The translations under genes were made by a program, and so were the position numbers. From a virus: 54,525 bases of DNA. Shown one piece after another: positions 4,329-52,603 of the stretch. The notes under the pieces are model-generated. The model ran no database searches, was not told the origin of the DNA, and was given only the letters and a program-made list of their open reading frames with translations. The stretch lies in the UHGV virus genome UHGV-0179380; one strand, written 5' to 3'. Each line of letters opens with the position of its first letter. Position 1 is the first letter of the stretch.

Positions 4329-4371
4329 CCATTTTGTGATCTGTGTTACATTTTTGACGCATACAAAATGT
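4329..4371. promoter_or_regulatory. divergent intergenic control region: CCATTTTGT and ACAAAATGT copies flanking a CRP-like dyad TGTGAtctgtgTTACA
   Basis: motif copies at 4329-4337 and 4363-4371; TGTGA-N6-TTACA at 4335-4350. Confidence 0.3.
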
Positions 4372-4466
4372 ATTTGTTGATTTATGTCAATATACGAAAT
4401 GTGGTTTTATCGGATATTTAAGCCACCGGATGAACCGGATGAGCTAACAAGAACGAGGATTAAAAA

Positions 4467-4715
4467 ATGAAAAACATGTTCAAAGTGGTTTTATTCTCTG
4501 CGGCTGTTGCTCTTACTGGTTGCGCTGTTGACAAAGAAGCTGCATTGCACAACCTGCCAAATAGCGGAGTAATCCCACAAGAAATTGTCTATGATGCTAA
4601 TGGTCATCTTGTCTATGACACTGAAAAACTGCCATATACTGGACAATGGTGTCATGAACTCGATCACAATATGCGCCGCATCGGTAGCCCGTCGAACTGT
4701 GTAGCTAATTACTGA
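4467..4715 (+). CDS. small lipoprotein (moron)
   Basis: 82 aa; signal peptide with lipobox LTGC; opposite strand to flanking tail genes; own terminator. Confidence 0.65.
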   Translation: MKNMFKVVLFSAAVALTGCAVDKEAALHNLPNSGVIPQEIVYDANGHLVYDTEKLPYTGQWCHELDHNMRRIGSPSNCVANY

Positions 4716-4718
4716 AAG

Positions 4719-4749
4719 AAAACCCCGCGCGAAGCGGGGTTATTTTTAT
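4719..4749. terminator. bidirectional rho-independent terminator
   Basis: aaccccgcgcgaagcggggtt hairpin with T-runs on both strands; serves lipoprotein gene (+) and J gene (-). Confidence 0.7.
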
Positions 4750-7700
4750 GACCATGATCCTGAGCTTCTCGTAACAAGCGCAAGCCCCGCCCTTCTTTCT
4801 GCACCTGTGCTGGTGTTTGTGTATTCCTCTGTTATCGTTATCGTAACTTTTTGCGCAGTAATCCCTGTGACGCAATGCGATACCGTAAATCCGAATTGAG
4901 GCGTTGATGCAGCCCTTACGACTGAATATGTCTTACTATTGCCATTAATATTAATTGTTACTTTTATGGTTGTTGATTGAGAATATTGATAGTAAGTCAG
5001 GTGATAAGGAATCATCACAAAAACGGTTTTAGAAAGCGAACTCGAAGACGAATCTGTATAAGTTTTAGTAACAGAACGCGATGCACTGCCCGACTGGTTA
5101 GGGAATGATGCTTGAGGTATAAAGTTAGTTGACGCGACATCGCCTACAAAACTTGTAGCCTCTAGCGACCCTTTAAATTTACCGCTATTTGCATACACCG
5201 CCCCCCTTACCGTTACGTTGTTAAGCTCCGCGCTACCGTTTTTATTAATCATCCAGCCAGCCGAACCGGCTTTATAGTTGGTTGACTGTATTTGCTGTGC
5301 AATTTTAGCTGTAGTGATTGCTGCATCTGCAATTTTAGCTGTCCCTATTGATGCGTCTTTAATAAACGCTTCGCGCACATACATTGCACCATTAGTGACA
5401 TAGAAAGGTGTTGTATATGTTCCGTTTGCCGCAGTCATTAACACGAAGCGGTCAACGAGGAAAATACACTGAGATTGTACATCAGTACCGCTACCAGTAA
5501 GACCAAGCGACATACCTGTTGCGTATTTCTTACCGTTGTTATCAGTGGCAATCTTAATTGAATATGACGCATCAACGTTACCTTTGAAGTCAGTTAACGC
5601 TTTCGATGTTGTCTCGATCGCCGTTGTGTTCCCGTTAACGGTTACTGTTAACTGATCAATTTTGGTTGATAATGCCTCGTCCGCCGTTGTCATGGTCTGC
5701 GACCATTCTGTGATACTTGAGTTTACCGCTTCGAAAGACGCTGAGATCTGGCTGAATTTTTCCGCGCTTGATGCTTCATGCGTAGAAAGTGCTGTTGATA
5801 CTTCAGATACTTTCGAATTAATCGTACTGGTAAGCGATGAGTTAAGGCTGCTTATCGCGTCAGTGCGGGCCTTCGTTTCGTCTGCAATGGCTTTATCAAT
5901 CCTGGTAACGTTGCTTGTAACCTTGCTATCAAGCGTGCTGATGCTTGCATTCACTCCGCTGATAGCTTCAGTTCTTGCGCTCTTCTCATCTGCGATGGCT
6001 TTATCAAGACGAGAAACACTTGCATCTGTTTTGTTTTCAAGGCTGCTTATTGAGGCATTTACTCCGCTTATTGCTTCCGTTCTTGCCTGCGTTTCGTCAG
6101 CAATTGCTTTATCTATACGCGTAATGTTGCTCGTTACTTTAGAATCAAGCGTGCTTATGCTGGCGTTCACTCCGCTAATTGCTTGAGCACGCGCGGCGGA
6201 CTCATCAGCTATTGCCTGATCAAGACGATTAACGCTGGCTGTTGTGCTGCTTTCCAGTGTGCTTATGCTGGCGTTAACATTGCTAATGGCTTCAGTTCTT
6301 GCCTGTGTTTCGTTTGCAATAGCTTTGTCTACTCGCGCTATCTCGCCTTTGATGTTTGAGTCCATCGTGTTCATCTCTGCGGTGATAGTTTCAAGCGCTT
6401 CTGCTGTTGCCTGTTTTTCGTCAGCAATGACATTGTCTATACGGTCGATTTGCGCTTTCGTTTCGCTGCGACCTTTTTTATATTGAGCGGTAAGAGTTAC
6501 GCGCGTGTTAGTTTGAGCAAGCGAATTATTAATAAGAGCAAGCGATGCGTTTTGTAGGCTTGCTTTTGTCTGTGCCAGTTCATTATCTACGTTTTCGCTT
6601 GATACCTCTAATGAGTCGATTCTTACCTCATGTTTGCCTATTTCATCGGCGTTTTCTTCGACTTTCTTGTAAAGGTCTTCAGTGTCTTTTTTAAGGGAAT
6701 CAGTATCAGTTCTTAAGCCTTCAGTTATTCCGCTTAGGCTATCAGTTGCTGTTTTAAGGTCATCGGTAGCTGCTTTAAGGTCTTCAGTTGCACTTTCGAT
6801 AATGTCAGTGCGGTCCCCAAGATCCTTAATGTCGCTTACCATTTCCTTAAATTGTTCTGAATTCATCACGTCTTTGGTGACGTAATCGCTAATTTCATCA
6901 AAATTTTCTGTCGGCTTACCTGATGCTTCAACGAAGTCTGACACGCCAAAAGCATTACGTGTACGCACATAAACGTAATAAGTATGGCCCGTGTTCATTC
7001 CGCCGAACGTCCACTGATACCCGCGCCCAGTAAACTGTGCCGCCGTGGTTATTTTTGCCGGATCTGTGATCTGGTTTTCCCCTGCATAGTAGAATTCGTA
7101 CGCTGTATCAGTTGTTAGCGTTGTCTTACTTATCGGGTATACTGTCGCCTGAAATACACCTGGCACCCAATTTACGCCAATTGGCGCGGCGGGCGCACCG
7201 ATGACAAGGTCAACGATACTTTCTGCACCCTTCATGCCAGTATCATTTCTTCCGCGAACTCCTAACGAATACGCGCCAGCGTCGATGCCATAAAAATCAT
7301 AACTGTATTTCGTTGTTTCATAGCTTTTAACCACCGCACCATCTGCATTATATATGCGGATCTCAAAGGTCATACGATGAGTTGTTGTCTGTGTTTCCCA
7401 TGTGGCTCGGCATTGAACCGTTTCAGATCCAATGTTTACCACCTTCAGATTTTCAATGTTCGGCACGCGGAAATGATTAAGCGTATCATTGTTGACCTCA
7501 AAGATTGCGCCTTCATCTACTATCGCTTGTTTGTTAGGGTCGTGCTGTGCGGCCTCGATGGTGTATACGCTGTTATTTTCGGTTTCTGCTACGCTGGTGA
7601 TCCGACACAAAACAGGTTTTGCCGCTTCAGTGGATACAGCGAAAACAGTCCCGTTACGTATCCATGCCGGGGACGCCGCTAAGGTGATCTCATTTCCATT

Positions 7701-51561: not shown

Positions 51562-51565
51562 AATT

Positions 51566-51772
51566 ATGAGACGGGTAATCTTTTATTCAGTTGAAACGTT
51601 TGTCGACGATACGCGCGTTTATTATCCGTGGGAAGTATACGACGCAAAGGTGTATACACCGCCACTGATGCGGAAATATAAACACGTAAAATTTAACCGG
51701 GTTTTCGTGCCAATGCGCGATGCATTACGGGCGCTGCGTGGGGAATTAAGAAACACAATGCGGATTGTGTAA
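51566..51772 (+). CDS. hypothetical protein
   Basis: 68 aa from ATG with ggggaacgggg SD. Confidence 0.45.
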   Translation: MRRVIFYSVETFVDDTRVYYPWEVYDAKVYTPPLMRKYKHVKFNRVFVPMRDALRALRGELRNTMRIV

Positions 51773-51781
51773 GGGGGAATT

Positions 51782-52009
51782 ATGAACAAGGATTTAGAAT
51801 TGACCGTGGAGGATTTAAGCACGATCGCGGAATACAAGCGCGGCGGTGATCCTGATAAACCTGTTACGGTTGATATGAAATATTTAAAAGGCGCTTTTAT
51901 GACTTCTTCAAGATTGATAAGTCTTAAAGCAATTATAAAGGCGCGCTGGGAAAGTTGGCAGGAATACAAAGCGAAAAATAAGGTGAAAAGAAATAATGCG
52001 GCAAATTAG
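51782..52009 (+). CDS. hypothetical protein
   Basis: 75-aa ORF. Confidence 0.45.
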   Translation: MNKDLELTVEDLSTIAEYKRGGDPDKPVTVDMKYLKGAFMTSSRLISLKAIIKARWESWQEYKAKNKVKRNNAAN

Positions 52010-52427
52010 ATTTGAGATAGTCAACGACGCCGTGAAAGAAAATGCTATCAGGCAGATAAGAGAGATCCAGCCTGATAGCAAAAGCCCGCTGATAATCACC
52101 ATCCAGGAGAAAACCCGCTCGCTAAGCCAAAATGCGTTGCTTTGGGCGCTATTGACCGACATTAGCGATCAGGTTAATTGGTACGGTAAAAAGCTGTCGC
52201 CGGAAGACTGGAAAGCGGTATTCACTGCCGGGCTTAAGAAATATGGCGTAGTCCCTAACCTAGATAAATCAGGCTTCGTTGTATTGGGAACGTCTACAAG
52301 TCGAATGAGTAAATCAGAATTCAGCGAACTAATCGAATTGATCTACTCGTTCGGTGCTGAACATGATGTTCAATGGTCGGGTGATACGAAATTAAACGAG
52401 GAATTTATAAAACGCTGGGGGCAATGA
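51996..52427 (+). CDS. ninB: NinB recombination protein
   Basis: 143 aa; strong recalled similarity to lambda NinB (TIQEKTRSLSQNALLWA, VVPNLDKSGFVVLGTSTSRMS). Confidence 0.85.
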   Translation: MRQIRFEIVNDAVKENAIRQIREIQPDSKSPLIITIQEKTRSLSQNALLWALLTDISDQVNWYGKKLSPEDWKAVFTAGLKKYGVVPNLDKSGFVVLGTSTSRMSKSEFSELIELIYSFGAEHDVQWSGDTKLNEEFIKRWGQ

Positions 52428-52603
52428 TGGTTAGTTATTATATGGCTAAATCAACGGGGATTTTGTACAAAATAGATCGCCATACGGTGTACTACTTCAA
52501 TAATCAAGCCCATGAATGGCGGGAATGTTTTTCTAAGTTTAAATCTGAAATAGAAAACAACCCTGAATATTACATTAAGGTTGACAATGTAACGGTGGCG
52601 TAA
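52424..52603 (+). CDS. hypothetical protein (59 aa)
   Basis: ATGA-coupled to ninB; contains 14-bp palindrome ATTTTGTACAAAAT at 52460-52473. Confidence 0.4.
   Translation: MMVSYYMAKSTGILYKIDRHTVYYFNNQAHEWRECFSKFKSEIENNPEYYIKVDNVTVA

Follow-up and report, generated by a model that had tools for sequence, protein, structure and literature searches.

Paired 13-bp sites dispersed along a prophage of the mEp021 group as probable operators of its lambda cI-type repressor

INTRODUCTION

The cI repressor of phage lambda binds adjacent operators cooperatively, and this cooperativity is mediated by its C-terminal domain. Other phage repressors act on sites that are spread more widely. Phage P1 has scattered operators, 17 bp long and asymmetric, to which the unrelated protein C1 binds as a monomer; each of them overlaps the promoter of its own lytic or accessory operon. 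Mycobacteriophage L5 has about 25 to 30 stoperators for its repressor gp71, mostly in short intergenic gaps and some inside operons, which are asymmetric and keep one orientation relative to transcription. The conserved inverted repeats (CIRs) bound by the phiC31 repressor are palindromic sites at many early promoters, mainly in the early region. A different kind of repeated element, the promoter early stem-loop (PeSL) of T4-type phages, consists of lytic-phage early promoters without an operator that behave as mobile cassettes flanking variable genes at mosaic junctions. Here we describe a 13-bp site repeated along the virus genome UHGV-0179380 (54,525 nucleotides, hereafter the window), which probably serves as the operator of the lambda cI-type repressor, Rep, that this genome encodes.

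The window is a nearly complete prophage and belongs to the mEp021 (“mEpimmI”) group of E. coli phages, with 84 to 94% identity to mEp010, mEp044, mEp554, mEp021, and MagusPhagus. Since the 3' part of the host gene abgT is found at its left end and an integrase-like gene at its right end, it represents essentially the whole prophage at the known abgT attachment site of the group. In 2025 it was proposed that these phages form a new family, one found in the human gut as often as the lambdoid phages. The 2025 paper on the group characterizes the cI-like repressor Rep021, whose function it demonstrates, an N-like antiterminator with three nut sites, and the attachment sites; most lysogens are not UV inducible, and Rep021 has no Ala-Gly cleavage site (PMC11893012). 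The nut-site layout used here, with the extra nut site needed, is the published one. No operators, promoters, or dispersed motif are named in that paper (PMC11893012), and our literature search found no article mentioning these operator sequences in a phage context.

RESULTS

An enriched 9-mer is the core of a 13-bp pseudo-palindrome

An initial annotation of the window had pointed to at least 12 exact copies of the 9-mer CCATTTTGT/ACAAAATGG. This over-representation is real: an exact search of both strands found 13 copies (Table 1), one of which (11344) had been overlooked, and several of the reported positions were off by 1 to 5 bp. The number expected by chance had been put at about 0.4, a uniform-composition estimate; 100 dinucleotide-preserving shuffles gave 0.96 ± 1.05 copies (the largest value was 5, and 0 of 100 reached 13) and an order-3 Markov model gave 0.80, so that the observed excess is more than 13-fold. 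An unbiased k-mer scan against an order-3 background placed the 9-mer family at the top for every k from 8 to 11, as the most enriched word of the window, with 24 copies of CATTTTGT versus 3.2 expected and 15 of CATTTTGTA versus 0.73. When one mismatch was allowed, 61 matches were found versus 33.6 ± 6.0 expected, an excess of approximately 27 sites. The GC content varies little along the window (0.42 to 0.51), and the excess is therefore not explained by base composition.

Judged by the annotated relatives, 10 of the 13 exact copies fall in non-coding gaps, in agreement with the initial description of most copies as intergenic. The other three (20014, 46348, and 49484) overlap coding or translation-start sequence; the first two are probably coincidental or have another role, and 49484 possibly so. 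The motif was also considered as a translation start, given the ATG within ACAAAATGG, and rejected: the ATG at 20014 alone is a genuine start, accompanied by a ribosome-binding site, and the others open reading frames of 2 to 14 codons.

The unit behind the 9-mer is a 13-bp pseudo-palindrome with the consensus ATAC(A/G)-NNN-(C/T)GTAT, of which the 9-mer covers the center and parts of both arms. Thus, CCATTTTGT consists of a non-consensus half (CCA), an AT-rich center (TTT), and the start of a consensus half (TGT). Two classes of copies can be recognized. Class A copies have nCCATTTTGT immediately before an A/T-rich hexamer (TAAACT, TATACT, or TATAAA), while those of class B are the 13-bp palindrome ATACA-TTT-TGTAT, whose core TACATTTTGTAT occurs four times exactly. 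Three perfect palindromes are present (4361, 11305, and 41509), together with many half-consensus copies; the near variant ATACAAAATGTAT noted initially is indeed found at 4361 and 41509. Information content is limited to the 9-mer and a weak WWAC(T), and no -35 at a fixed distance was found when sought around the motif copies. Copies are grouped in clusters of two to four, in mixed orientation, with both orientations inside the same transcription units. Another palindrome reported near 52460-52473 does exist, as the perfect 16-bp GATTTTGTACAAAATC (52459-52474) in a small open reading frame near ninB; it contains TTTTGTA but, with its arms in the reverse arrangement, does not fit the site model.

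The clusters have a precise geometry. In the window, pairs whose centers are exactly 25 bp apart are found at 12.9, 16.3, 32.1, and 45.6 kb, and cassette alignment adds a fifth at 11.3 kb. The promoter-proximal site (O1) supplies the TAT of the -10, and the distal one (O2) ends on the first T of the -35. The hexamer that trails class A copies looks like a -10 because O1 overlaps the -10, and several motif copies are also part of -10 regions, forming a combined promoter-operator element. The near symmetry of the site allows a single pair to serve divergent promoters in both directions, with the O1 of one promoter acting as the O2 of the other. Across the relatives, a distance of 25 bp between neighbors was counted 94 times in tail loci and one of 24 to 25 bp 66 times in rep loci, with nearly no close pairs in shuffled controls. 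When nine window cassettes are aligned with five leftward early promoter (PL) regions of the outgroups described below, the shared positions are limited to the operator arms, the T at the start of the -35, and the A following TAT, and the 12-bp stretches between operators are unrelated. The likeness of the cassettes thus appears to reflect function and not recent duplication.

Operator-like sites flank the repressor gene

Rep, the Rep021 orthologue, matches lambda cI over its full length (PDB 3bdn, E = 8e-20), C-terminal domain included. On both sides of its gene, two or three adjacent sites lie over the -10 and -35 of an early promoter (Table 1). The O2 of the leftward early promoter is invariant in 33 distinct sequences from relatives, as are, among relatives, the -35, the -10, and the adjacent (C/A)CATTTTGTATAC, while the spacer varies. 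The O1 of this promoter is invisible to a 9-mer search. Invariant parts of the rightward early promoter are its -35 (CTTGAY) and the stretch (C/A)CATT(T/C/A)TGTAAACTTGC, and the first 8 bases of its spacer vary. The arms of its O1 are invariant too, with a center of TTT, TTC, or TTA among cross-immune relatives; relatives tolerate CCATTCTGT or CCATTATGT at this promoter because the center triplet is free in the outgroups. The operator-like site nearest to rep reads ACATTTTGTGACTTGC in most relatives and is the perfect CCATTTTGTGACTTG in the related locus L133.

Domain and PHROG matches of the window's proteins include no Cro homologue. In the region 46457-46927, the rightward early transcript passes nutL and directly enters the first gene of its operon, which encodes an 84-amino-acid HTH_36 protein, the N-terminal DNA-binding part of a split replication initiator. 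A Cro protein is encoded in the outgroups, and a Cro-like HTH_3 gene is present in the related phages L133 to L136, whose repressor is 55% identical to Rep. Two other candidates for the operator of the immunity region were discarded: CTTGC-N6-GCAAG is unique and not enriched (23 near-matches versus 28 expected), and ATTTTAAG-N7-CTTAAAAT is not conserved among cross-immune relatives.

The same site occupies the operator positions of other lambdoid phages

As outgroups we used four prophages (L137 to L140, from Enterobacter, Tatumella, Serratia, and Citrobacter) and the complete Klebsiella phage KPP5665-2, all of them otherwise ordinary lambdoid phages with Rep homologues 39 to 52% identical and of the same helix-turn-helix (HTH) family. 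In the Enterobacter, Tatumella, and Serratia prophages, three palindromes lie between cro and rep, with centers ca. 33 and 26 bp apart, and another three lie beyond rep and before boxA, of which the two promoter-proximal ones are 25 bp apart. The Citrobacter prophage and KPP5665-2 have three sites between cro and rep and two on the far side, again 25 bp apart. These are the positions of the classical rightward and leftward operators (OR and OL), and their consensus is the class B sequence of the window. Class A-type variants also occur among them; in both KPP5665-2 and the Citrobacter prophage, for instance, the middle OR site is TTCCATTTTGTAT. The geometry does not vary: the first T of the -35 is the last base of the distal site, and the TAT of the -10 comes from the proximal one, as in the PL example ATACATTTTGTATtgcat...ATACGTTTTGTATatt, which has the same build as the leftward early promoter of the window, ATACAAAATGGATtgact-cggtgtt-TTACGGGGCGTATatt. 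The Rep-family repressor is the only protein encoded next to the site arrays that is common to the window phage and all five outgroups.

Outside the flanks of the repressor gene, the outgroup palindromes occur almost nowhere. We built a weight matrix from the 18 outgroup operators only and applied it with a cut-off of 12 bits and 40 simulations. In the window, 11 sites spread from 4 to 48 kb reached the cut-off versus 1.5 ± 1.1 expected (at most 4 in the 40 simulations); mEp021 had 9 and MagusPhagus 10. The whole 39-kb genome of KPP5665-2 contained three, all in the immunity region. Since the sites are scattered in the mEp021 lineage and confined in KPP5665-2, their dispersal belongs to the lineage and not to the repressor family.

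The initial annotation had proposed a binding site for a phage or host regulator and listed a cI-like protein among the candidates. The comparison with the outgroups supports the proposal and points to the cI-type repressor in particular, with the 13-bp site, usually paired at 25 bp, and not the lone 9-mer, as the unit found at OR and OL positions in five phages with Rep homologues.

The sites are conserved in position among relatives

The motif is present at the equivalent position for almost every locus in three complete or near-complete relatives, and in ca. 90 IMG/VR loci it forms an island of conservation with variable immediate flanks. All 44 close relatives carry it (44/44), with 1 to 8 copies per 20 kb or less, and it is essentially absent from 36 loci of another phage group that shares tail protein M (66 to 70% identity). 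The repressors of the 44 IMG/VR relatives are 91 to 100% identical. A P0008-type repressor is 55% identical overall, with an N-terminal arm and a recognition helix identical to those of Rep, and the phage encoding it keeps the motif (7 to 8 copies per 20 kb versus 0.41 expected) and the same layout of the immunity region. Because the repressors of the relatives are so similar and the helix of the 55% homologue is identical, this heteroimmune comparison cannot separate Rep from other binders.

Sites beyond the immunity region

In the mEp021 lineage, at least eight loci beyond the two early-promoter regions carry sites, four of them as 25-bp pairs that we read as back-to-back promoter-operator cassettes (Table 1). 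Three of these four pairs sit where opposite-strand accessory genes interrupt the tail operon. This minus-strand operon is broken by four plus-strand accessory cassettes (4467-4715, 11367-12359, 12964-13898, and 16431-16995), whose cargo includes a lipoprotein, an 82-amino-acid ANT/KilAC-like protein, a ParE-like toxin, and small membrane proteins. Each cassette has a strong bidirectional terminator at one end and a motif cluster exactly at the other. A 21-bp GC-rich terminator hairpin, AACCCCGCGCGAAGCGGGGTT, is present twice in opposite orientation (4721-4741 and 12220-12238) at the ends of two of them, and its recurrence accounts for the enriched words CCGCGCGGG and GCCCGCGCG.

At 16.3 kb the motif block is invariant among relatives and the flanks vary. 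On the strand of the tape-measure promoter, the upstream O2 reads ATACAAAATGGAT, a 13-mer identical to the O2 of the leftward early promoter. At 32.1 kb, homology to relatives (L001 and L005) breaks at the left edge of the pair, and the gap after the Q gene in which the pair lies (32110-32210) is a candidate late promoter. The promoter at 37.9 kb precedes the nutR2 boxA (GCTCTTTAAAAATCC, reverse complement of 37877-37891), and relatives carry a perfect TCCATTTTGTATACT at its O1 position. With this third operator-overlapped promoter, all three nut sites follow a promoter of this kind of their own, which may be connected with the reported requirement for an additional nut site.

The two single sites at the exonuclease and helicase gene starts, for which a roadblock or a translational function is possible, lie within a repeated 35-nucleotide gene-start cassette (..CATT(C/T)TGTAAACCGGAGG..A(T/A)TATG), upstream of the Shine-Dalgarno sequence. 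The copy at 4329, upstream of the lipoprotein gene, overlaps TGTGATCTGTGTTACA (4327-4345), which we take to be similar to a CRP site.

Table 1. Sites, promoters, and reference genes in the window
Feature	Position	Strand	Remarks
Host abgT, 3' part	1-1446		Left end
Exact 9-mer copies	4329, 16340, 20014, 32176, 37976, 45593, 46348, 46436, 49484	+	Exact search
Exact 9-mer copies	11344, 12883, 16315, 32151	-	Exact search
Four-site array	4298-4404 (4298, 4327, 4361, 4392)		Centers 29, 34, and 31 bp apart; between tail-fiber and lipoprotein genes; holds copy 4329 and perfect palindrome 4361
25-bp pair TACCAAAATGGAT / ATACAATATGTAT	11280-11317		Second site a perfect palindrome; 19.4 bits; leftward -10 TATGAT faces tail gene L
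Predicted promoter TTGATC-17-TATATT	11292-11320	+	Toward antirepressor-like cassette; found unaided by generic scan; perfect palindrome over -10
Extra site TAACAAAATGGCG	11342-11354		Copy 11344; 37 bp from the 11.3-kb pair
Site TTACATTTTGTAT	12809-12821		Gene M leader
25-bp pair TTACAAAATGGCT / CAACAAGATGTAT	12881-12918		Copy 12883; leftward to tail gene M, rightward to cassette with ParE-like toxin
Third site of 16.3-kb array, ATACAAAATGTGA	16284-16296		29 bp from the pair; tape-measure gene leader
25-bp pair ATACAAAATGGCT / ATCCATTTTGTAT	16313-16350		Back-to-back cassette; copies 16315 and 16340; TATAAA leftward to tape-measure gene, TATAAA rightward to plus-strand accessory cassette
9-mer copy at head-tail gene start	20014-20022	+	Reverse complement GGAGCAAACAAAATGG is ribosome-binding site plus start codon; not kept in mEp010
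25-bp pair TAACAAAATGGCA / TGCCATTTTGTAT	32149-32186		Copies 32151 and 32176; first intergenic gap downstream of Q antiterminator gene; leftward TTGTTT-17-TATAAA
Operator-overlapped predicted promoter TTGTTC-16-TATACT	37907-37934	-	O1 at 37910-37922, ATCCGTTTTGTAT on promoter strand; directly upstream of nutR2 boxA
Two further sites of 37.9-kb array, CGCCATTATGTGA and CGCCATTTTGTAA	37944-37986		Copy 37976
Pair 24 bp apart, CCGTTTTGTAAG-type site and ATACAAAATGTAT	41485-41521		Second site (41509-41521) a perfect palindrome
Site TTACATTTTGTAT	44912-44924		Between N-like gene and next small gene
Leftward early promoter TTGACT-17-TATATT	45563-45591	-	Generic scan 10/12; followed by nutR1 boxA (reverse complement of 45504-45520) and N-like gene
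O1 of leftward early promoter, ATACGCCCCGTAA	45566-45578		TTACGGGGCGTAT on promoter strand; TAT of -10 TATATT; 25 bp from O2
O2 of leftward early promoter, ATCCATTTTGTAT	45591-45603		Holds copy 45593; last base on promoter strand is first T of -35 TTGACT
rep, lambda cI-type repressor	45715-46362	-	Pfam HTH_3 and Peptidase_S24
9-mer copy in rep codons 3-5	46348-46356	+	MKTKW N-terminus; L133 encodes same peptide with AAG, DNA word lost
rep-side operator-like site TCACAAAACGTGT	46399-46411		ACACGTTTTGTGA toward rep; over putative rep promoter; 35 bp from 46440
Rightward early promoter TTGATC-16-TAAACT	46422-46449	+	Leads to nutL boxA (46528-46542) and replication genes
O1 of rightward early promoter, TTCCATTTTGTAA	46434-46446		Copy 46436; TAA begins -10 TAAACT
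Single site ATACATTCTGTAA	48345-48357		Abuts ribosome-binding site of exonuclease gene
Single site TTCCATTTTGTAA	49482-49494		Same 13-mer as rightward O1; copy 49484; in last codons of preceding gene, abuts helicase gene ribosome-binding site
Integrase-like gene	53431-54477		Right end

DISCUSSION

What binds the sites

We consider it probable, from the sequence comparisons above, that the sites are a dispersed operator network of the lambda cI-type repressor Rep, arranged in precisely spaced pairs along the genome. Several observations weigh against it. At the rightward early promoter and the putative promoter of rep, the sites are 35 bp apart and not 25. The CCA/TGG inner halves are strictly conserved in the mEp021 lineage, and a homodimer should not need them. 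The ca. 44 relatives are closely related, so that the conservation counts are not independent, and no co-variation of helix and half-site was found in the Rep family, in which ATAC half-sites accompany all three variants of the recognition helix (ITKGGLSHW, ITKGAVSHW, and ITQGGLGHW). The -35 hexamers of most internal cassettes are poor, a generic sigma-70 scan picks only one of these cassettes (17 hits overall versus 22.5 expected), and the two single sites placed directly against ribosome-binding sites cannot be useful promoters. Repression of accessory cassettes in the lysogen also conflicts with the usual view of morons, the lipoprotein being thought to act in exclusion. Finally, we infer Rep as the binder from its position and homology; its cooperative binding is a prediction, as is the use of the internal cassettes as active promoters, whose activity is uncertain.

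Some of these points would suit a binder other than Rep, such as a Cro-like factor, the weakly MarR-like 182-amino-acid protein, the proteins of the antirepressor cassette, or a host factor. In classical lambdoid phages Cro and cI share their operators, a second protein could recognize the conserved CCA half, and helix and operator show no co-variation. The 182-amino-acid protein (51013-51561) matches a PHROG annotated as a MarR-type regulator (E = 1.5e-7), with no Pfam or PDB match. Against this, the window has no Cro homologue, and beside the arrays only the Rep-family repressor is shared with the five outgroups. Among host factors, what we take to be look-alikes of OmpR (C1 site), TyrR box, CRP (4330), IHF, DnaA, and LexA sites each fit single copies at best. 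On balance, we regard a different binder as unlikely. It is distinctly improbable that no repressor is involved at all and that CCATTTTG with the next hexamer forms a -35-independent core promoter for the host RNA polymerase, possibly with a special sigma factor. In favor of such a promoter, the motif always precedes an A/T-rich -10-like hexamer (TAAACT, TATACT, or TATAAA), the conserved island spans from about -21 to +1, most copies are oriented toward the downstream gene, and a -35 appears at no fixed distance. However, the palindrome is also found away from -10s (in O2 over the -35, in the outgroup OR2 between divergent promoters, in leaders, and at ribosome-binding sites), perfect palindromes and a fixed 25-bp pairing have no rationale for the polymerase alone, and the outgroup genomes confine the sites to the immunity region. 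We know of no polymerase contact for a conserved CCA at -22 to -20. A TGn extended -10 was rejected, as the TG directly adjoins the hexamer (CCATTTTG|TAAACT) without the one-base gap, and so was the motif as an extended -10 or a reversed -35, for which there is no consistent partner hexamer. By eye, the sites do not match what we take to be the sigma-54, sigma-32, and sigma-S consensuses.

The cassettes might instead be primarily recombinational, as boundary, linker, or mobile regulatory sequences for the exchange of accessory modules, with regulation as a secondary role. They are located where accessory genes interrupt the tail operon, homology breaks at the edge of the 32.1-kb pair, the terminator hairpin is repeated, and in L133 two copies flank an extra gene. 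Yet only 13 + 13 bp are shared and the spacers are unrelated, which is too short for efficient homologous exchange, and the precise 25-bp geometry with its -10 and -35 overlap indicates protein binding and transcription. We give a primary role of this kind very little credence, although recombination is compatible with the sites being Rep operators and does not exclude it. As for a statistical artefact of AT-rich intergenic composition or conserved coding sequence, the three exact copies overlapping coding or translation-start sequence speak for it; the expectation of about one copy from shuffles and the Markov model, the absence of the motif from the related tail module elsewhere, and the fixed spacing make it almost inconceivable.

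A possible role in lysogeny and late transcription

If Rep is the binder, a Rep dimer would bind each 13-bp operator and pairs would be occupied cooperatively. With O1 over the -10 and O2 at the -35, such occupancy should block RNA polymerase. In the lysogen, Rep would silence the internal promoters together with the early ones; upon its loss, the internal promoters would fire, tail-gene segments behind bidirectional terminators would be re-initiated, and the accessory cassettes (antirepressor-like, ParE-like, and lipoprotein) would be expressed. Such a scheme would account for the expression of a tail operon that is split by bidirectional terminators and genes on the opposite strand, and for its silence in the lysogen. 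The location of the antirepressor-like gene behind the strongest operator-controlled cassette (11.3 kb) is suggestive of a bearing on the switch.

A more far-reaching version, which we put forward as doubtful though possible, is that Rep runs a genome-wide network of portable bidirectional cassettes, in which each 25-bp pair has brought or captured an accessory module and placed both the module and the downstream segment of the late operon under immunity control, and in which pairs may loop into a higher-order complex. If true, this would be a phage organization distinct from the two operator regions and Q-driven late transcription of lambda, and might explain the extra nut site, the missing Cro, and the lack of UV inducibility.

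For the mEp021 group, the analysis provides a concrete candidate operator sequence, a map of ca. 25 sites, and a prediction of three early promoters under operator control, with a nut site behind each. The results further suggest that numerous internal promoters in the late region can be kept in check by a repressor of the cI type; to our knowledge, such behavior is known for the unrelated repressors P1 C1 and L5 gp71 and not for the lambda cI family.

Comparison with known operator systems

The system would work like the OR/OL of the lambda type (lambda, 434, and P22), whose defining features of sequence and layout are all found here save the confinement to the immunity region and Cro; cooperative binding of the repressor is predicted. 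A full-length lambda cI homologue with HTH and S24 domains is encoded adjacently, the sites are pseudo-palindromic with one consensus and one non-consensus half, and adjacent sites lie ca. 2.4 helical turns apart over the early -10 and -35 on both flanks of the repressor gene, with nut sites downstream. It differs in that the mEp021-type site has 13 bp and another sequence, that the window phage lacks Cro, and that the sites extend to at least eight more loci, including four 25-bp pairs, in the delayed-early and late regions.

In its dispersal, the system is like the P1 C1 operators or the phiC31 CIRs, without being a member of either family. With P1 it shares many sites scattered over the genome under what appears to be one immunity repressor, but the sites described here are palindromic, 13 bp long, and paired at 25 bp, and Rep belongs to the cI/LexA type of repressors. 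With phiC31 it shares palindromic repressor sites repeated across the genome, although the repressor family and the host differ and the sites here also lie at interruptions of the late operon. The L5 stoperators are similar in number (about 25 to 30 repressor-type sites per genome) and in their placement, mostly in short intergenic gaps and sometimes inside operons; unlike them, the sites described here have mixed orientation and are mostly symmetric or paired. Like the PeSL, they are short repeated regulatory cassettes beside variable accessory genes at mosaic junctions, here with 13 + 13 bp shared, but PeSL have no operator, while these cassettes are built on putative operator pairs.

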